64,000 nucleotides of DNA from an uncultured Acidimicrobiia bacterium (GCA_963795125.1 CAWCGQ010000002.1:264025-328024), one strand, 5' to 3'. Shown: positions 49,216 through 58,141, numbered from the stretch's first letter. The notes: generated by a model not told the origin, from the letters alone. Numbers and translations: made by a program.

Positions 49216-49803
49216 GCGTGAGAATAGCGCAGAATTCCGCCAGCACCATGGCGGTGGCGCCCCACACTTTCTCGCCGTCGAGATCGAAGTACGGCACGTC
49301 CACGTCGATCGACCGCCCGTTCACCACGCGCGCGTGGATCTCGCGCTTGAGCGACGGCCGGCTCGGACAGCCGCGACACCGGCGCTTCGATGATGCGCGC
49401 CACCTCCCACTCGGCGCGCTGGAAGGCCGGCCGCATCGAGGTGAAGCCGACCACCGGATGCAGCAGGAAGCCGCTCACCGGGATGTGCAGCGGCGTCAGG
49501 CGCCCGAGCACTTCGACGACGCCGCGGATCGACGCCGATCTCTTCCTGCGCTTCGCGAAGCGCCGCGGCCTCGATGGTCTCGCCCGGCTCGACGCGGCCG
49601 CCGGGCAGCGACACCTGTCCGGTGTGATTGCGAAGGCCGGAACCGCGAACCGTCAGCGCCAGATGCAGCGTGTCGTCATGCGGCTGGCCCGCCGTAGCTT
49701 CCGTGAAGGCGGGATAGACCAGCAGCAGCGCCGCGCCGTCGTGCGCGCCGTCGGGCAACTTCAACGGATCCCAGCCGATTCGCGGCGCCGGCGCCATGCG
49801 CAA
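49212..49803 (-). pseudogene. NUDIX hydrolase (CoA pyrophosphatase-like), ~3 frameshifts
   Basis: The Nudix box is GGRVEPGETIEAAALREAQEEIG. The downstream pieces LGRLTPLHIPVSGFLLHPVV and VPYFDLDGEKVWGATAMVLAEF lie in other frames. Confidence 0.8.
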
Positions 49804-49885: not shown

Positions 49886-51283
49886 CTACTTCTTCAAGGG
49901 CGTGCTCTGCCGCACCGGCGACACGTAGGAGCTGACCAGGCTCTCCTGACCGTCGGCGCCGATCGCCGAGACGCCGAAGGCGAAGTCATCGATCGACACG
50001 TTCTTCAGTCCAAACTGCGTCACGTTGCCGATCGTCTGGCTGTGCTGCCAGTCATTGGTCCAGGTATCGCGCCAGTAGATCCGATAGGCGACCGCGCCCG
50101 GCGCCGCGTTCCAGCGCAGGCTCGCGTCGTAGCCGGACGGATCGCGCGACGAGCATGTTGCGCGCCGCGCTCGTTGGTGACCTTCGGCGCCGGCGGCGCG
50201 AGCGCCAGCGAGGCCACGCCGGCGGCATTGACGCGCGCGTTCTGCGCCAGGTAGCCGAAGTCGACGCCGTCGATCCGGTCGTTGGCGCCGTGCTGCCGCT
50301 CGAAGTTCTCGTTGGCCTCGCGGAAGACGATGGCCGGGAAACCATTCTGCGTGAACGACGACTGGTCGCTGCCGCGGCCGAACCGATCCTCCCGCGCCAT
50401 CAGGCGGATGCGATGCGACGGCACGTAGAGCGCCGCCGACTTGCTGGATGTAGCGCGCCAGCGCCCGCGCCGGCGAGTCTTCCGGGCCAATCGCATAGAC
50501 GCGGACCGTTTCCGCATCGACAATGCCATTGCCGCCGCGCGAGTTGCCGACGATGTCGTTGTTGAAGACGGCTTCGACGGCCACGCCGTTGGTCTTGAGG
50601 TCCATCGCGTGGACGGCGGACCCGATCAGCCCCTGCTCTTCTCCGGCCCAGCAAATGAACACCAGCGTCGCGTCGAACTCGAGGCCGCTCTCCGCGAACA
50701 CCCGCGCCAGCTCCATCGTCAGCACGGTGCCGCTGCCGTCGTCGTTGGCGCCGTTGGCCTCGACGTTGTGATCGAAGTCCGGGCGCGTCTGGCGATCGCC
50801 GCCGGCGGTGGCGCCCGGTGCGGCGGCATTCGATTGGTTCTGCCCGCCGATATTGAGCGAGTCGTAGTGGCCGCTGATGTAGATGCGGCGCGGCGATCTG
50901 CCCGGGCAGGATCGCCATCACGTTGCGCAGATCGACCTGGCGGGTGATGCGACCCTGCGGCGGAATGATGTGGGTGTCGAAGCTGACCTTGAGCTTCTCG
51001 CTCGAGCGGCGCATCTCCTCGAGGATCCAGTTGCGCGCCGCGCCGATGCCGCGCGTCGGCGACTCCTGATCCGACAAGCGTGTTGCGGGTGCCGAAGCTC
51101 ACCAGCTTCGTCAGCAATTCCTGCAGGCGCTGCTCGGAGACGGCGCGCGACGATCTTTTCGATCCGCGGATCGGCATCCGGCCGCGGCGCGCTCTGCGCG
51201 GCGGCGAGCGTGGGCGTTCCAACCAACAACGTGAACACCACCACCGCAAGCCCGCCCAGTAGAAGAGTGCTGCGCATTTCCAC
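49886..51283 (-). pseudogene. M28-family metallopeptidase with a C-terminal FN3-like domain, ~6 frameshifts
   Basis: Signal MRSTLLLGGLAVVVF. GANDDGSGTV...FICWAGEEQGLIGS is M28 zinc-ligand context. The tail is YRIYWRDTWTNDWQ. Confidence 0.7.
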
Positions 51284-51396: not shown

Positions 51397-52572
51397 TTGA
51401 CTGCAAGAGTTTCAGCCCGATTTCAAATCCTGCTGTGGGGCGCAGCCGTCTGTTACGTCGCCGCGATCGGCGTGGCGACGCTCGGCGCCGCTCAGGCGCC
51501 GGCGCAACCGCCGCGTGGCGCGGCGGTGCCTGCGGACGCCACCGGCGAGCAGATCTTTGCCGCCGCCTGCGCCGCCTGCCACGGGTCCGACGGCACCGGT
51601 TTGCCTCGGAGCGTGGTTGGCTTCGAAATCGCCAACGGGCACGAACTCCCCGACTTCACCGATTGCGCCACCAGCACGGTCGAGCCGCTCGCGGATTGGC
51701 TGGCGGTGGTCCACGAGGGCGGTCCGGTGCGCGCGCTCGACCGCCACATGCCGGCGTTCGGCGACGCGCTGACGGTCGAGCAGATCGAGCGGACCCTCAA
51801 GTATCTGTGGTCGTTTTGCGACGACGGCAACTGGCCGCGCGGCGAGCTCAATTTCCCCCGGGCGTTCTTCACGGAGAAGGCGTTTCCGGAAAACGAAACG
51901 GTGCTGACCACCGGCGTGACGGCGAGCGGGCCCAAGAGCATCACCAACGAGATCGTCTACGAGCGTCGGCTGGGCGCGCGCGGCCAGTACGAGATCGCGG
52001 TGCCGTTCGACATGCGGCAGGGTGAGGCCGGCGGTTCGTGGAGCCGGGGGCTGGGCGACATCGAGATCGCGGTCCGGCGAACGTTCTATCACGACGTGAC
52101 GCGAGGCAGCATCTTCGCCGCCGGAGGCGCGGTGGTGCTGCCAACCGGGAAAGAAGCGCTCGGCCTCGGCAACGGCTACACCATCGTCGAACCGTTCGCG
52201 ATGTTCGGCCAGGCGCTGGGCGCCGCGGGTTTCGTGCAGCTCCACACCGGCATCGAGATTCCCACCGATCGCCGCCGCGGCGAGAATGAATCGTTCGCGC
52301 GAGCGGCGGTCGGCTACTCCTTCGCGCAGGATCGCACGTTCGGCCGCGCCTGGACGCCGATGGTCGAAGTGCTGATGGCCAAGCCGCAACGCGGCCCCGC
52401 CGAGTGGGACGTGGTCCCGCAAGTGCAGGTTTCCCTCAGTAAGCTGCAGCACGTGCTGCTCAGCGTCGGCGCGCGCTTTCCGGTCAACGAGCGTGACGGA
52501 CGCAAGCCGCAAGTGCTCACCTATGTCCTGTGGGACTGGTTCGACGGCGGCTTCCTGCAGTTCTGGAAATGA
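51397..52572 (+). CDS. monoheme c-type cytochrome fused to a barrel-like (MetA/phenol-degradation-transporter-like) domain
   Basis: Intact 391-aa ORF with a TTG start and a signal. One CxxCH (CAACH) with a downstream HMPAF. The C-terminal ~270 aa has an alternating beta-strand character and ends FLQFWK. Confidence 0.7.
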   Translation: MTARVSARFQILLWGAAVCYVAAIGVATLGAAQAPAQPPRGAAVPADATGEQIFAAACAACHGSDGTGLPRSVVGFEIANGHELPDFTDCATSTVEPLADWLAVVHEGGPVRALDRHMPAFGDALTVEQIERTLKYLWSFCDDGNWPRGELNFPRAFFTEKAFPENETVLTTGVTASGPKSITNEIVYERRLGARGQYEIAVPFDMRQGEAGGSWSRGLGDIEIAVRRTFYHDVTRGSIFAAGGAVVLPTGKEALGLGNGYTIVEPFAMFGQALGAAGFVQLHTGIEIPTDRRRGENESFARAAVGYSFAQDRTFGRAWTPMVEVLMAKPQRGPAEWDVVPQVQVSLSKLQHVLLSVGARFPVNERDGRKPQVLTYVLWDWFDGGFLQFWK

Positions 52573-52576
52573 ACCC

Positions 52577-54235
52577 ATGCGCCTGACCACTGGACCGAGC
52601 CGGCTGATCGCGCTTGCCGCGATGGCGTGGACGATCGCCATGCTCGCCGCGGCGCCGCGCGCCGCCGACCAAGCGCCGCCGGCCGCAACCGCGAACCCGC
52701 ATCGCGATCTCTCGCTCTTCACCCATTCGGACAACTGCGTGGCCTGCCACAACAACCTCTCGGCCGCGAACGGCGAGGACGTCTCGATCGGCGTGATGTG
52801 GCGCTCGACGATGATGGCGAATTCGGCGCGCGATCCGTACTGGCAGGCGTCGGTGCGCCGCGAGGCAATCGACCATCCGAGCCACGCCGCCACCATCGAG
52901 GACGAGTGCGCGTCGTGCCACATGCCGATGCCGCAGCGCATCGCGCGCGCGGCGGGCGCGAAGGGCGAGGTGTTTTCGCACCTGCCGATCGCGAAAGATC
53001 AATCCGATCTGCAGCGGCTGGCCGGCGACGGCGTGTCGTGCACCGTGTGCCATCAGATCGCGCCGGACACGCTCGGCACCCCGGCCAGCTTCAACGCCAA
53101 CTTCGTGATCAAGCCGACGCCGGCCGACGGTAACCGCGTGATCTTCGGACCGTACGAGATCGACGCCGGCCGCCGCACCATCATGCGATCGGTCACCGGA
53201 TTCCAGCAGGAAGCGGCGCCGCACATCAAGCAGTCGGAGCTGTGCGCGTCGTGTCACACCCTGATCACCAAGACGCTGGGACCGGGCGGCGAGGTGATCG
53301 GCGAGCTGCACGAGCAGATGAACTACCAGGAATGGCAGCACAGCGACTATCCCAAAGAGGAGCGCAGCTGCCAGTCGTGCCACATGCCGGCGGTGGCCGG
53401 CCCGATCCGGATGTCGTCAGTGCTCGGCGAGCAACGCGACAGCCTGGCGCGCCATACGTTCGTCGGCGGCAACGCGCATATGCTGCGGCTGCTCAACCGT
53501 TTCCGTAGCGAGCTCGGCGTCACCGCACCCGCCGCGGAACTCGAGGCCACCGCGCGCGCGACCGAGCGCCAGCTGCAGCAGGACACGGCGACGATCAGCC
53601 TGACCGCCCCGGCGCTCGAGGCCGGGCGCCTGGCCTTCGAGGTGCGCGTCACCAACCTGACCGGGCACAAGTTCCCGACCGGCTACCCGTCACGCCGCAC
53701 CTGGCTGCACGTGACGGTGCGCGATGCGCGCGGCGGCCTGGCCTTCGAATCCGGCGCCATCACCGATGCCGGCCTGATCCGCGGCAACGACAACGATGCC
53801 GATGCCACCAAATACGAGCCGCACTACGAGGAAGTCTCATCCGCCGACGAGGTGCAGATCTACGAGACGGTCCTCGGCGATCGCTCGAGCGCGGTGACCA
53901 CCGGCCTGCTGAGCGCGACGCAGTATTTGAAGGACAACCGCCTGCTGCCGCGCGGTTTCGACAAGGCCACGGCGCTGCCGGAGATTGGCGTGTTCGGCGC
54001 GGCTCGCACCGACCCGGATTTCGCGAGCGCCGGCGATCGCGTGCGCTACCGCATACCGGTGTCGGGCGAGGGCCCCTTCCGCGTCCAGGTCGAACTGCGG
54101 TATCAATCGATCGGCTTCCGGTGGGCCGCGAATCTCGAAACCGTCAACGCGCCAGAGCCGGCGAAGTTCGTCGCGTATTACAAAGCCACCGCCGCGGGCT
54201 CGTCCGTCGTCGTCGCATCCGCAACCTCCCAATAG
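52577..54235 (+). CDS. pentaheme c-type cytochrome with a C-terminal non-heme domain
   Basis: Intact. The start MRLTTGPSRLIALAAMAW lies 4 nt after the upstream stop. It has five CxxCH motifs (CVACH, CASCH, CTVCH, CASCH, CQSCH), then a HKFPTGYPSRR-containing domain. Confidence 0.8.
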   Translation: MRLTTGPSRLIALAAMAWTIAMLAAAPRAADQAPPAATANPHRDLSLFTHSDNCVACHNNLSAANGEDVSIGVMWRSTMMANSARDPYWQASVRREAIDHPSHAATIEDECASCHMPMPQRIARAAGAKGEVFSHLPIAKDQSDLQRLAGDGVSCTVCHQIAPDTLGTPASFNANFVIKPTPADGNRVIFGPYEIDAGRRTIMRSVTGFQQEAAPHIKQSELCASCHTLITKTLGPGGEVIGELHEQMNYQEWQHSDYPKEERSCQSCHMPAVAGPIRMSSVLGEQRDSLARHTFVGGNAHMLRLLNRFRSELGVTAPAAELEATARATERQLQQDTATISLTAPALEAGRLAFEVRVTNLTGHKFPTGYPSRRTWLHVTVRDARGGLAFESGAITDAGLIRGNDNDADATKYEPHYEEVSSADEVQIYETVLGDRSSAVTTGLLSATQYLKDNRLLPRGFDKATALPEIGVFGAARTDPDFASAGDRVRYRIPVSGEGPFRVQVELRYQSIGFRWAANLETVNAPEPAKFVAYYKATAAGSSVVVASATSQ

Positions 54236-54277
54236 ACGGAGCACGCACCGTACGCACCTTAGTACCTTTCGTCTCCG

Positions 54278-54970
54278 ACCGTGAATCGCAACATCCACGG
54301 CGTCGCCCGGCGACTGGATCGTCAGGCCATCCGCCCGCGCATCACGGACGAACCGGGCATCCACCTTGTGGATGCGCAGGCGGACGAGCTGATCCTCTGA
54401 GACGGTCACGAAGCCGACGTCCTTCATCGACTTGATGAACTCGGGCGTCACCTTGTGGATGCGGAACTTGACGAGGTCGTCCACGCCCATCCCGCCGAAG
54501 CCGAGCGCCTTCAGCCGATCGATCTCCTCGGGCGACACCTTGTGAATCCGCATCTTCACCAGATCTTCCGCGGCGACGTTGCGATAGCCGCGCGTGTCGA
54601 GCGCCCCGATGAATTCGGGCGTCACCTTGTGGATGCGGAAGCGGATTAGTTCCTCCACCGACTGACCGCGAATGCCCTGATCCTGCAGCGCCTTGATGTT
54701 CGCGGGCGTCGCGCCGTGAATGCCCATGCGCACCAGATCGTCGACGGCGATGTTCCGGTAGCCGACGCCGGCGAGGTCGCGGACAAATTCGGGAGTGACC
54801 TTGTGGATACGCATGCGGATCAGATCGTCGAGCGGGAGGTTCGGATAGCCCGCCTGCGTCAGCCCGCGCACGTGCGCGATGGTGACGTCGATTACCGCGA
54901 GCCGGACGATGTCGTCGGCGGTGAGGCTGCGGTAGCCGGCATTGGCCATGTTGGTGACGAAGGCCTGATC
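54278..54970. repeat. 87-nt coding tandem repeats (about 7-8 copies)
   Basis: caccttgtggatgcg-type cores recur every ~85-90 nt. The protein shows 29-aa units from FVTNMANAGYRSLTA to DAVDVAIHG. Confidence 0.75.
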
Positions 54971-55231
54971 CGGCGCGAATGTGTAGGTGCCGCTGCCGCG
55001 ACCCTGATCGAACGACCCGGAGAAGCGGAAGGTGCCGGCTTCGCGCGTCCAGGTGAACTGAACATTGTCGGCGAGGCTGGAGAAAGCGGCCGCGGGGAGC
55101 CCCGCCAGGTCGCGAAGGCGCACGCCGAAGCCCCACCGGCTGTCGCCGGCGCCGGTCCGCAAGTTGAACTGCACGCGCGGCTCACCGTCATCGTCACGCC
55201 ACGTGCCGCGGGTGTCGGCCGTCCATTCCCC

Positions 55232-55315
55232 CCGGGCCGCAGACTGGAGCGCCAGGGCCGCAGAAGGCGCAGACGCAGGCTGGAGCACCAGGGCCGGAGA
55301 CGGCGCAGACCGCTC
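55232..55315. repeat. 36-nt coding tandem repeat (2 copies plus a partial) sharing a 22-nt core with 2582-2603
   Basis: Units at 55244-55279 and 55280-55315. ccagggccgcagaaggcgcaga at 55252-55273 is identical to 2582-2603. It encodes SAPSPALVLQ/PASAPSAALALQ. Confidence 0.7.
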
Positions 55316-55480
55316 TAACGCCGCACCCAGCGCGTTCGAAATCGTCGCCACTGACAGTAGGGCGACGGAAAGAAGGGCGGTTTTACGCATCTCGGTGACC
55401 TCAAAGCATTGGATGGGTTGACCCGGACCGAGGGTTGGATTCGAAAGGCCGCTGGCTGCCAGGCGCTACAATTCCTGGAG

Positions 55481-58141
55481 ATGGGGCTGGCGGCGGGCTC
55501 GAGATTTGGCGGCTTCGAGATTCAGGACCTGCTGGGTGCCGGAGGGATGGGGGAGGTCTATCGAGCCCGGGACATGAAGCTCGGTCGCGATGTTGCCCTC
55601 AAGGTGATCTCCTCCAGACTTACCGGCGATCGCGAGCGGCTCGATCGCTTCGAGCGCGAAGCGCGCGCACTTGCCTCGCTCAACCATCCTGGCATTGCTG
55701 CCATTTACGGAATCGAAGAGGCGGATGGGGTGCGCGCGCTCGTCCTCGAATTCGTCGAGGGTGAGACGCTCGAGCAACGATTGCGCCAGCAGGGCCGGCT
55801 TCCGGTGGCTGCGGCCTTACGCATCGCGCGGCAGATCGCCGATGCCCTTAATGCCGCGCATGATCGAGGTTTCGTCCATCGGGATCTGAAGCCCTCCAAC
55901 ATCGCGTTGTCGCCGAACGGGGATGTCAAGGTCCTGGATTTCGGTCTGGCCAAGACGTTGTTCGATTCCGCGAGCCCGGATGCAGCGGCGACCGTCACAG
56001 CAACCGAGGCGGGCATGATTCTCGGCACCGCCGCGTACATGAGTCCCGAACAGGCCCGTGGGCAGATCGTCGACAAGCGGACCGACGTGTGGAGCTTTGG
56101 CTGCGTTCTCTACGAGATGGTGACGGGACGAGCACCATTTCGCGGGTCGACGTGGTCCGACATCGTGTCGCAGACGCTCACCGCCGAACCGGACTGGTCG
56201 GCCGTGTCATCTGCGGTACCGCCGGGCGCAGTGCTCATCCTGAAACGCTGCCTCGAGAAGGACGCGAATCGTCGGCTTCGCGGGCTCGGCGACATCGAAC
56301 TGGCACTCGACGCGCCGGCGCCGCCGACCGGGGGGCGGGCCCTGCTGTGGATTGCCCTCGCGGCGGCCGCTGGCATCGGTGCCGGCGCAGCCGGGGTGCT
56401 CGCCTTGACCGGCGTTCGTGACCAACCCGCAGCAACGGCAGCGGCGCCGATCCAGTTCGAGATCCCGCTCTCGATCCAACCGGGAGAGTCGGGAGCGTTC
56501 GCTGTTTCACCTGATGGCAAGCGGCTCGCCTTCATCGGCACGGGCGCTGACAGCGTCCTTCGGATGTGGGAGCGGTCGTTCGATGCGATCGAGACGCGCC
56601 CCATCGCCGGCACCGAAGGCGAGGTTGCGGGGAATTCCTCGATCTTCTGGGCGCCGGACAGCGAGACGATCGGGTTCTACGCAAACGGCTCGGTCAAGAA
56701 GATCGGCCGGAGTGGTGGAGTGCCCCAGGTCGTGTGCAATGTGCCGGGTATCGCTGTTGGCGGCGCCTGGAATGAGCGAGGCGACGTCGTGGTCGGCAGT
56801 CCCGCAGGGCTGATGCGATGCGCCGCGGACGGCGGGACACCTTTGCCATTGACGAGCGTGCGGGAGACGAGCAGCCCAACGGTCCACTTCTTTCCGACAT
56901 TCTTGCCCAACGGACAGCACCTGCTGTACCTGCAAGTGTCGCGGAGCGATCCGTCAGCAAATGGCCTCTACGTCGCCGACCTCAACCTCGCGCCCGCGCA
57001 ACAGAATCCGACTCGCGTGCTCGACACCGGATTCGGAGCCGAATACGTGGCCGGCGCCGGTAACGCCGGCAAGATTGTCTTCGTTCGGAGTGGCGCGCTC
57101 TGGGCGGTACCGTTTCTTAGCGATCGAATGGTGGTCAACGGAGCCGCCGTTCAGATTGCCGAGTCGATAGGCACATTCCGTGACTCCGCCTTCTTCCGCG
57201 CCAACGCCAGCACGCTCATCTATCGCAGTGCGGTTCCTGACTACCGGCTGACACTGCGCAGCCGAAGCGGGGACGGATTGGGCGTGGCGGGCGCGCCGGG
57301 GCAATTCCTCGGTGTGGCGCTGTCTCCGGATGAGACCCGGGTGGCGGTCTCTCGCGAAAACCGCTTGAATCGATCCGAGCAGGATCTATGGCTGATTGAT
57401 CTGCGGCGCGACACCACGACACGGTTCACCGCTGATGCGATGCCCGAATCGATTCCCACCTGGTCGGCGAGTGGCGACGCTTTGATTTATGCGGCCGGCC
57501 ACGACGCCGCGTCGATCCTGCGGAAGAGGTTGGACGGCGGCGCCAGCGAGATCCTACTCGATGGGACCAGCGACGAGGTTCGTGTGAATCCCCTCCTCAC
57601 CACCCTGAGCGCGACCGGTGATGGGCGTTTCCTGATCTTCTCGGTGGATACACGCACGGTGAATCGTTCCGATCTCTGGTCGATGGCGCTGCAAGCCGGA
57701 GCGAAACCCGCGCCGCTCGTACAGCAAGACGCCGATCAGACGCAGGCGTCGGTGTCGCGCGATGGTGAGTGGCTGGCGTATGTATCAAACGAAGCCGGCG
57801 CCAACGAAGTGTTCGTGCGGCGCATGACGAGCGATGGAGCCGGCGGCATTCGCGCCGCGGCATCGACCACGCTGGTCTCGCTTCGCGGCGGCCATGCCCC
57901 GCGGTGGCGAGCCGACGGCCTGGAATTGTTCTATCTGTCGCCGGCCGGCCAGGTCATGGCGGCGCAGGTCTCTCCCACCACGATCGGTGCGCCACGTGAA
58001 TTGTTCCAGGCGCCAGGCGCGCTCCCGTCATGGGATGTGTCACGCGACGGCCAGCGCTTTCTCCTCGCCATGCCCAATCGCACGTCCGAGCCGCCGCCTT
58101 TTTCGGTGGTAGTGAACTGGCAGTCCGCGCTGCCGCGCTGA
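55481..58141 (+). CDS. Ser/Thr protein kinase with a TM segment and a C-terminal TolB-like beta-propeller
   Basis: Intact. GAGGMGEVY...VALK, HRDLKPSNI, DFGLAK and the SPEQ motif are present. A TM segment (LLWIALAAAAGIGAGAAGVLAL) is followed by repeated SPDG/SRDG propeller motifs. Confidence 0.9.
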   Translation: MGLAAGSRFGGFEIQDLLGAGGMGEVYRARDMKLGRDVALKVISSRLTGDRERLDRFEREARALASLNHPGIAAIYGIEEADGVRALVLEFVEGETLEQRLRQQGRLPVAAALRIARQIADALNAAHDRGFVHRDLKPSNIALSPNGDVKVLDFGLAKTLFDSASPDAAATVTATEAGMILGTAAYMSPEQARGQIVDKRTDVWSFGCVLYEMVTGRAPFRGSTWSDIVSQTLTAEPDWSAVSSAVPPGAVLILKRCLEKDANRRLRGLGDIELALDAPAPPTGGRALLWIALAAAAGIGAGAAGVLALTGVRDQPAATAAAPIQFEIPLSIQPGESGAFAVSPDGKRLAFIGTGADSVLRMWERSFDAIETRPIAGTEGEVAGNSSIFWAPDSETIGFYANGSVKKIGRSGGVPQVVCNVPGIAVGGAWNERGDVVVGSPAGLMRCAADGGTPLPLTSVRETSSPTVHFFPTFLPNGQHLLYLQVSRSDPSANGLYVADLNLAPAQQNPTRVLDTGFGAEYVAGAGNAGKIVFVRSGALWAVPFLSDRMVVNGAAVQIAESIGTFRDSAFFRANASTLIYRSAVPDYRLTLRSRSGDGLGVAGAPGQFLGVALSPDETRVAVSRENRLNRSEQDLWLIDLRRDTTTRFTADAMPESIPTWSASGDALIYAAGHDAASILRKRLDGGASEILLDGTSDEVRVNPLLTTLSATGDGRFLIFSVDTRTVNRSDLWSMALQAGAKPAPLVQQDADQTQASVSRDGEWLAYVSNEAGANEVFVRRMTSDGAGGIRAAASTTLVSLRGGHAPRWRADGLELFYLSPAGQVMAAQVSPTTIGAPRELFQAPGALPSWDVSRDGQRFLLAMPNRTSEPPPFSVVVNWQSALPR

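Follow-up and report, generated by a model that had tools for sequence, protein, structure and literature searches.

A conserved gene pair encoding a fused cytochrome c-outer-membrane barrel protein and a pentaheme cytochrome, a candidate redox gate

Introduction

How would a cytochrome c with a single heme, joined in one polypeptide to an outer-membrane barrel and encoded beside a multiheme cytochrome, exchange electrons, and with what? This question is raised by two adjacent genes, here referred to as gene A and gene B, in a 64,000-nucleotide stretch of DNA from an uncultured Acidimicrobiia bacterium (GCA_963795125.1, CAWCGQ010000002.1:264025-328024), the whole of which we call the window. 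An earlier annotation of the window, made from the sequence alone and referred to below as the original prediction, had pointed to the pair as a possible route for electrons through the outer membrane. The A-B pair is a real, intact and strictly conserved module, in which a fused cytochrome and outer-membrane barrel was made independently from different parts and is accompanied by a dedicated pentaheme partner. As to its function, we favour, with a probability of about 45%, a redox gate, in which a periplasmic heme would lie at the mouth of a narrow acidic channel, a small substrate would diffuse to it, and B would link it to the periplasm.

The A-B gene pair and its distribution

Gene A (51397..52572; all features of the pair lie on the plus strand) encodes a fused cytochrome c and predicted outer-membrane barrel of 391 amino acids (aa), as indicated by its open reading frame (ORF), full-length homologues, Pfam matches and an AlphaFold2 (AF2) model. 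It starts with TTG and ends with a TGA stop codon (52570-52572), which is followed by a spacer of 4 nucleotides (nt), ACCC (52573..52576), and then by gene B (52577..54235), starting with ATG at 52577. Gene B encodes a secreted pentaheme c-type cytochrome of 552 aa with an Ig-like C-terminal domain, identified through its ORF, its Pfam and NCBIfam matches, and its resemblance to the structure 5ZE8 in both sequence and fold. The two genes are intact and co-directional, and both proteins are full length when measured against their homologues; of the candidates scored for A, 5613 had E<=0.001. In the database, A is entered (P0001, 366 aa) with a later start that would delete the signal peptide, and we favoured the longer start because 391-aa homologues support it. 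For B, an identical database protein exists (P0121). Public annotations give A as 'cytochrome c' or 'mono/diheme cytochrome c family protein', and B mostly as 'hypothetical protein'.

In A, the predicted signal peptide, read from the sequence, occupies aa 1-33 (51397..51495), with a hydrophobic core, AQA at aa 32-34 and no lipobox, and a hydrophobic N-terminus is present in 19/19 diverse A homologues. The sole CxxCH motif of A is CAACH (aa 58-62; 51568..51582), which is followed by HMPAF (aa 117-121; 51745..51759). Met118 of the latter is the presumed distal heme ligand, a role that follows from general knowledge of class-I cytochromes c, and M118 and P119 are invariant in both A1 and A3, two sets of relatives. 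The protein ends in FLQFWK. In B, a predicted Sec-type signal peptide with no lipobox cysteine (aa 1-30; 52577..52666) precedes the pentaheme region (52736..53383), in which a motif search located CxxCH at aa 54, 111, 155, 223 and 265 (nt 52736, 52907, 53039, 53243 and 53369); all ten cysteines of the protein are inside these motifs. By chance, shuffled sequences are expected to contain 0.001 CxxCH in the case of A and 0.005 in that of B, and the number observed is fixed in the two families, with exactly one in 51/51 aligned A homologues and five in 50/50 B homologues, among which none of the 15 motif Cys and His residues varies. The original prediction had thus read the pair correctly: the two intact genes 4 nt apart, the signal, single CAACH and downstream HMPAF of the first protein, and the signal, five CxxCH and non-heme C-terminal part of about 280 aa of the second (283 aa beyond the last motif) are all as it described. 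Its barrel-like part ending in FLQFWK was also found, at a length of 250 aa rather than about 270 aa.

For the genome scan, in which each species was represented by one genome, at least 540 genomes encode a relative, and the best 80 loci were examined together with two fetched earlier (82 in total). By their labels, 72 of the best 80 belong to Vicinamibacterales or other Acidobacteriota, 3 to Gemmatimonadota (2 of them Longimicrobiales), and 5 carry other or uninformative labels. Using tblastn, B was detected directly downstream of A on the same strand in 78/82 loci, and the other four end within 260 bp of A. Adjacency of A and B therefore holds in 78/78 informative loci, or 77 distinct places, since two of the loci (L001 and L004) are one contig stretch; the co-occurrence which the original prediction had proposed to survey is accordingly that of constant neighbours. 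Clustering of ORFs from 81 loci revealed no other conserved neighbour, as only A, its antisense shadow and B were present in at least 80 loci, and the next commonest cluster in 18/81 or fewer. In the window itself, the neighbouring genes encode an amidohydrolase/PD40 protein, a symporter, a methyltransferase, a creatininase, a NUDIX protein, an M28 peptidase, a Ser/Thr kinase and an extracytoplasmic function (ECF) sigma factor, and no redox gene is among them. A scan around the pair gave no promoter-like site, and a terminator scan there gave one terminator-like match (minus strand, within gene A), fewer than shuffled sequences give. That A and B form a two-gene operon is well supported.

A more distant branch of A (33-38% identity) was found in candidate division KSB1, Ignavibacteriales and Bacteroidota, and its members have kept all of the architecture, from the signal peptide and cytochrome through the linker to the barrel. 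Within 6-8 kb of the A-like gene, neither B nor an ORF with at least 3 CxxCH was present in KSB1, Bacteroidia and other branches, and the neighbours vary, being a patatin-Omp85 protein, thioredoxin and DsbD, ferredoxin and a ferredoxin-NADP reductase (FNR)-like reductase, or nothing notable. Labelled members of the family come from at least four phyla. Since the fused protein is found alone in other phyla, it would be an autonomous unit. To judge from the sequenced loci, the A-B pairing is specific to one clade, B being the addition in Acidobacteriota and Gemmatimonadota. When the barrel domain alone was used in an exhaustive HMMER search, 717 representative clusters were obtained, and no unfused barrel was seen among the 22 matches whose sequences were read. 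On these sequences, the fusion in A is obligate.

Cytochrome domain, linker and barrel of A

The N-terminal part of A is a class-I cytochrome c domain (aa 47-141; 51535..51819) recognised by PF13442 and PF00034. Within it, at aa 47-139, Cytochrome_CBB3 (PF13442) scores 38.7 bits with a cut-off of 27, and Cytochrom_C (PF00034) scores 28.1 bits with a cut-off of 21.3. At the sequence level, A therefore has the profile match above the gathering score, the CxxCH and the distal Met by which a class-I c-type cytochrome is recognised. Residues C58, C61, H62, M118 and P119 are invariant across the superfamily, and so are C90 and C141, which probably form a disulfide. Searched against solved structures, the A-family profile matched c6, CcoP and QcrC only, with all matches confined to the cytochrome domain, and the barrel part had no sequence match among the solved structures in this search.

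Similarly, no Pfam family matched the remaining 250 aa of the window copy of A, and PF13557 (Phenol_MetA_deg) gave none at E<=1. The AF2 model, built from 51 homologues, has a mean predicted local distance difference test (pLDDT) score of 70.6, with strand blocks mostly at 75-95, and shows twelve antiparallel strands at aa 167-379 (51895..52533; the grouping of DSSP segments into strands is ours). The assignment of this region as a 12-strand beta-barrel also draws on Foldseek matches, the alternation of strand faces and the occurrence of PF13557 in homologues. The strongest Foldseek matches of the model in the PDB are all outer-membrane barrels: FapF (12 strands, E 2.6e-9), the COG4313 channel of Pseudomonas putida (Pput2725, 4RL8; 12 strands, E 2.6e-6), NanC (12 strands, E 6.2e-6) and KdgM (12 strands, TM-score 0.77-0.78 relative to the target). 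With the query as reference, general porins within the top 50 reached a TM-score of just 0.22-0.29. Where the strand pattern is clearest (strands 3, 4, 7, 10 and 11), the hydrophobic face is less conserved (0.63-0.88) and the polar face more conserved (0.79-0.99), a pattern opposite to that of a soluble barrel and therefore pointing to a membrane barrel whose lumen is polar. The C-terminal part of A as a transmembrane-type beta-barrel is hence supported by the model, and the barrel topology that had been suspected earlier came out as a 12-strand model with outer-membrane, not soluble, folds at the top. The guess that the barrel is Phenol_MetA_deg-like was probably right as well, because PF13557 matches appear in both close and distant homologues: weak ones in 7/51 close homologues (best E 5.5e-4), and matches of 25.5-35.8 bits across the barrel region, above the gathering score of 22, in 8 distant ones.

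The barrel is followed by a conserved C-terminal tail, DWFDGGFLQFWK (aa 380-391; 52534..52572 with the stop codon), in which D380, W381, F382, D383, G384, G385, F389 and W390 are invariant within the clade and pLDDT is low; relatives from the distant clade terminate in EYADGGLWW. Taken together, profiles and model give good support to A being an outer-membrane protein with a predicted barrel of the COG4313/Phenol_MetA_deg kind and an N-terminal His/Met one-heme class-I cytochrome c. The N-terminal end is periplasmic in the usual topology of such barrels.

Between the two domains lies a Pro-rich linker of 25 residues, DDGNWPRGELNFPRAFFTEKAFPEN (aa 142-166; 51820..51894), which is non-helical in the AF2 model with low to moderate pLDDT. 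It is the most conserved segment of A, with a mean of 0.91 compared to 0.81-0.82 for both domains, and its residues G149, N152, K161, A162 and P164 are invariant in an alignment of 19 sequences with 33-44% identity to A. In the COG4313 channel, whose structure was described in 2015, the segment ahead of strand 1 reportedly occludes the lumen. By analogy with that channel, we infer that the linker may be a barrel plug which pins the heme domain at the periplasmic mouth; the extreme conservation of the linker is, by itself, only suggestive of a place within the lumen. On the side of the strands assigned to the lumen, we counted 14 acidic and 6 basic residues, and E167, E189, E199 and E324 on this side are invariant across a superfamily sharing 33-44% identity; His283, Met269 and Met322 are also assigned to the lumen.

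A plug in the barrel might also mean that nothing passes through it. The closed barrel would then tether an ordinary carrier cytochrome c at the inner face of the outer membrane, where it would work with B in the periplasm. A tightly packed, sealed plug would suit both the invariant linker and the highly conserved polar lumen, the two best fold matches, FapF and the COG4313 channel, are plugged barrels, and the heme domain is an ordinary class-I carrier domain. However, a lipid anchor or a single helix would be far cheaper than a barrel of 225 residues, acidic residues are conserved at all assigned levels of the lumen, which is beyond what an anchor needs, and the obligate fusion in at least four phyla suggests that both parts cooperate. 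We therefore see a mere anchor as a possible explanation, yet a rather unlikely one.

A further alternative comes from the order of the parts in A. Signal, passenger, linker and C-terminal 12-strand barrel follow each other as in type Va autotransporters, and the NalP translocator is among the fold matches of A (E 6e-4); the cytochrome might thus be displayed as a passenger exported through its own barrel, with the linker left in the pore. Against such display, no Pfam autotransporter family matched at E<=1 in 51 members, the FapF and COG4313 barrels match far better than NalP, and A shows neither the beta-domain profile nor the helical pore linker of the type Va autotransporter, its linker being Pro-rich and non-helical in the model. 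Moreover, a holo-cytochrome folded in the periplasm would be a poor passenger, and its heme at the surface would be unreachable for a periplasmic B. Autotransporter-like display is, in our opinion, the least probable of all explanations considered.

The pentaheme partner B

Beyond the hemes, B has a non-heme C-terminal domain (53468..54235) consisting of helices and then a beta-sandwich with a conserved insertion, according to the secondary structure of its AF2 model and to its alignment with the C-terminal domain of Thermochromatium tepidum c552. This domain contains the motif HKFPTGYPSRR (aa 364-374; 53666..53698), which is common to T. tepidum c552 (HAMPTGAPFRN) and in which H364, K365, P367, G369, P371, R373 and R374 are invariant. 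Just two Pfam matches of B reach their cut-offs, MtrC/MtrF domain II/IV with 33.6 bits (cut-off 30) and Cytochrome_C7 with 30.4 bits (cut-off 24.8). The best NCBIfam match, ExtKL (NF040886), has an E of 3.2e-10 and 39.2 bits, which is below the cut-off of 250. By sequence, the PDB match of B is weak and goes to 5ZE8 (E 0.012 overall, 0.11 for the aligned stretch) via H-x-x-P-T-G-x-P-x-R; by fold, 5ZE8 is the sole significant PDB match of the AF2 model (E 6.9e-7), whose mean pLDDT is 64.

With its five CxxCH, its Ig-like domain and, at modest model confidence, its 5ZE8-like fold, B has the features of the ExtKL/GSU2801/c552 pentaheme family. It is well supported, the fold being that of a model, that B is a soluble, Sec-exported pentaheme cytochrome of the ExtKL/T. 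tepidum c552 kind with a predicted Ig-like C-terminal domain. ExtKL, GSU2801, cable bacteria's pentaheme cytochromes and c552 have been described as a single family having an Ig-like domain, with c552 stated there to be of unknown function (PMC11976967, 2025). The low-potential pentaheme c552 of T. tepidum (5ZE8) and B have in common the five-heme domain, the Ig-like domain and H-x-x-P-T-G-x-P-x-R; they differ in that identity is 15% and that B exceeds c552 by about 120 residues, its C-terminal domain containing a large conserved insertion, TTGLL...YLKDNRLLPRGF.

ExtKL, a periplasmic pentaheme cytochrome, has its gene beside that of the 21-strand outer-membrane protein ExtI (PMC6148476), and a barrel partnership thus has a precedent in this cytochrome family. 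The ExtHIJKL cluster of Geobacter sulfurreducens resembles A-B in that a pentaheme cytochrome of B's broad family is encoded beside an outer-membrane barrel (PMC6148476; PMC11976967). Unlike A, ExtI has 21 strands and no heme domain, and the cluster also includes a rhodanese lipoprotein and ExtJ, whereas B has no in-frame TGA and falls far under the cut-off of the ExtKL model.

With a cytochrome, an outer-membrane barrel and a multiheme partner within one operon, and with sub-threshold or borderline matches of B to MtrC/MtrF domain II/IV and ExtKL, the pair might be thought of as a true conduit, in which, as in MtrAB or Pcc, the fused protein would let electrons cross the outer membrane towards or away from minerals outside the cell. 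Transfer across the membrane by the fusion was what the original prediction had put forward. Its geometry is weak, as the barrel protein has one heme only and no heme chain spans the membrane, which is about 25-30 Å thick and well beyond the range of single-step tunnelling. In addition, a cytochrome domain of about 95 aa cannot fit into a 12-strand barrel, known conduits having 21-26 strands (PMC8406198; PMC6148476). MtrCAB, PioAB and Pcc do have in common with A-B that an outer-membrane barrel and c-type cytochromes are encoded together, but they comprise 20-26-strand porins sheathing a deca- or octaheme wire, plus a surface cytochrome, which A-B lacks. No gene for an extracellular cytochrome or lipoprotein is conserved nearby, and B has no lipobox. 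Because the class-I domain is too large for the 12-strand lumen and the single heme is periplasmic, we regard a trans-membrane conduit as very unlikely. The second proposal of the original prediction, a redox-linked uptake channel, fared better, a redox-linked channel fitting the anatomy of A more closely than a conduit does.

Comparison with Cyc2 and other barrels

The original prediction had also assumed that a cytochrome fused to a barrel is in itself a different architecture. This was wrong, as fused cytochrome-porins have been established or proposed in the shape of Cyc2 and Cyc572, from iron-oxidising bacteria (PMC8406198; PMC10654088); since such fusions are already known, the fused architecture as such is not new. 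Both share with A a signal peptide, one N-terminal CxxCH and a C-terminal outer-membrane barrel in one polypeptide, often encoded by a stand-alone gene. Cyc2 is a fused monoheme cytochrome-porin in which Fe2+ is thought to be obliged to enter the pore (PMC8406198), and its proposed logic is the same as that of the gate considered here for A, with a substrate that reaches the heme at or in a small pore and no heme wire.

Nevertheless, there is no homology between A and Cyc2. The Cyc2 motif AxPxFAR[Q/K][T/Y], located 5 aa upstream of CxxCH (PMC8406198), was searched for as the regular expression PxFAR[QK][TY] and found in 0/51 A members, the window copy having GEQIFAAACAACH, and the PxL motif located 4 aa downstream of CxxCH was likewise found in 0/51. 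The Cyc2 barrel has 16 OprO/OprP- or PhoE-like strands, compared to the 12 strands of COG4313/FapF type in A, and its heme site is a short heme peptide, whereas the class-I domain of A is complete, spans about 95 aa and includes a Met ligand and a conserved pair of Cys. Also unlike Cyc2, the A clade has an obligate pentaheme partner. Thus, with the motifs absent, 12 instead of 16 strands, a different barrel family and a full class-I domain, A is not a Cyc2.

The COG4313/Phenol_MetA_deg channel (Pput2725, 4RL8) and FapF share with A the 12-strand fold and a conserved segment ahead of strand 1, but differ from A, whose assigned lumen is strongly acidic. In the literature, we found no description of a cytochrome fused to a COG4313/Phenol_MetA_deg barrel, nor of the A-B pair.

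A redox gate as the favoured hypothesis

In the redox gate that we favour, the linker would fill the lumen of the barrel in the manner of the N-terminal segment of the COG4313 channel, and in this position it would keep the heme domain at the periplasmic mouth of a narrow channel with a presumably net acidic lining. A small redox-active substrate would diffuse through or along the barrel and swap electrons with the heme of A, so that no electron would have to tunnel across the membrane. B would dock on the heme domain of A and connect its heme to the periplasmic electron pool. The fused protein would then be the autonomous core, and B an added wire in the clade of Acidobacteriota and Gemmatimonadota. 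The principle would be as in Cyc2, yet built independently from different parts. Given the net acidic lumen, a metal cation, for instance Fe(II) or Mn(II), is our best guess for the substrate; the alternative would be a small molecule resembling a quinone or a phenol. The barrel family, for its part, suggests a hydrophobic redox molecule.

The latter substrate leads to another explanation, corresponding to the redox-linked uptake channel of the original prediction, in which the barrel would admit a phenolic, quinone or humic fragment, redox chemistry would take place at the periplasmic exit, and A and B would carry the electrons. The barrel probably belongs to the COG4313/Phenol_MetA_deg family, which is said to be implicated in the uptake of hydrophobic molecules. 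On the other hand, the assigned lumen is strongly charged and not hydrophobic, no dehydrogenase or oxygenase is conserved beside the pair, and His/Met hemes do not serve as catalytic sites for organic compounds, all of which makes a hydrophobic-substrate channel an unlikely reading of A-B.

Several points weigh against the redox gate. In the AF2 model of A, pLDDT falls below 50 at aa 74-119 and 143-151, and, because the cytochrome domain and the linker are of low confidence, the model does not establish the position of the plug or the distance from heme to pore. Closure of the barrel and the size of its pore are taken entirely from the fold matches, and the highly conserved lumen could equally be that of a rigid, closed and plugged barrel. 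The channels of the COG4313 family, following the 2015 structure, are reportedly thought to carry hydrophobic molecules and not cations. The direction of electron flow is a further difficulty. His/Met class-I hemes are usually of high potential. The closest solved relative of B, c552, is described as low-potential in a title cited in PMC11976967. A low-potential c552-like B next to a high-potential His/Met heme would favour flow from B to A, and hence reduction of an incoming oxidant, which is the opposite of a Cyc2-like oxidase.

Possible significance for soil bacteria

Little is known of the respiratory and metal-related abilities of Vicinamibacterales and related Acidobacteriota, which are common in soil metagenomes. 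To our knowledge, Cyc2 is the one established family of fused cytochrome-barrel proteins, and it serves as a marker gene for neutrophilic iron oxidation. Tentatively, and with clearly less confidence than we have in the gate itself, A-B may represent a second, independently evolved class of fused cytochrome/barrel redox gates, acting on an external metal (for example Fe(II) or Mn(II)) or on a small redox substrate of another kind, and an unrecognised marker of redox cycling in soil. If this is true, the gate of Vicinamibacterales, a soil order of very high abundance, would in every case be connected to a pentaheme cytochrome of its own, and A-B would be a possible new marker of surface redox chemistry in soil Acidobacteriota. 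A second family that is non-homologous to Cyc2 would widen the gene set for spotting soil bacteria that exchange electrons with metals, humics and other external redox compounds. The pair also gives the poorly understood ExtKL/c552 pentaheme family a second, very clean genetic link to an outer-membrane barrel and, being small (two genes, six hemes), it is amenable to the heterologous expression approach that was used for Cyc2.

Other observations at the loci

Two kinds of candidates for other architectures were rejected. Apparent stand-alone barrels of 260-290 aa begin at the HMPAF Met and so represent truncated gene calls, and long matches of 560-750 aa are frameshifted read-throughs from A into B; neither kind amounts to a new architecture.

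On the minus strand of the window, an ORF at 53837-55390 encodes a secreted protein with five clear tandem repeats, mostly 29 aa apart and of the type 'DDLvRmRIHKVTPEFi...GYRN', and at least one degenerate copy; no Pfam match was found for it. This ORF has no stop before 53837 and so covers about 400 nt of gene B in antisense; a stop near 54255 in another frame suggests an indel and not a real overlap with gene B. Upstream of the pair, also on the minus strand, the M28 peptidase gene (49886-51283) is split over two frames, with Pfam positions 40-123 in the ORF 49886..50725 and 133-191 in 50020..50529; this is a frameshift, being either a pseudogene or an assembly indel. The NUDIX hydrolase ORF at 49321-49803 (minus strand) matches the domain over its first half alone (positions 17-62 of the 134 in the profile), and as the remainder seems to be in another frame, a second indel is possible nearby.

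Adjoining the pair in the window is a gene at 55409-58141 (plus strand) for a Ser/Thr protein kinase of about 910 aa fused to PD40 beta-propeller repeats. A similar kinase gene is located near the pair in L001 (4886-7612), and the kinase cluster was present in 11/81 loci; its recurrence could reflect loose synteny or a regulatory link. ORF clusters just upstream of A, absent from the window, occur in 17-18/81 loci, and L008 (6945-7921) and L034 (6848-7971) have there a small secreted helix-hairpin-helix protein (HHH_3, ComEA-like) and a hydrophobic protein of about 165 aa with no Pfam match. In L085 (8001-11401), from Bacteroidia, genes for a thioredoxin-like protein and DsbD come after a lone A-like gene, and in L088 (6001-8188), from another branch, this place is taken by genes for a 2Fe-2S ferredoxin and an FNR-like reductase; these are possible alternative electron or thiol-redox partners where B is missing. 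In one Acidobacteriota genome (L001, 13123-13953), the gene after B, which is not conserved elsewhere, encodes a DUF2231 membrane protein with TPR repeats that might link the pair to the inner membrane.

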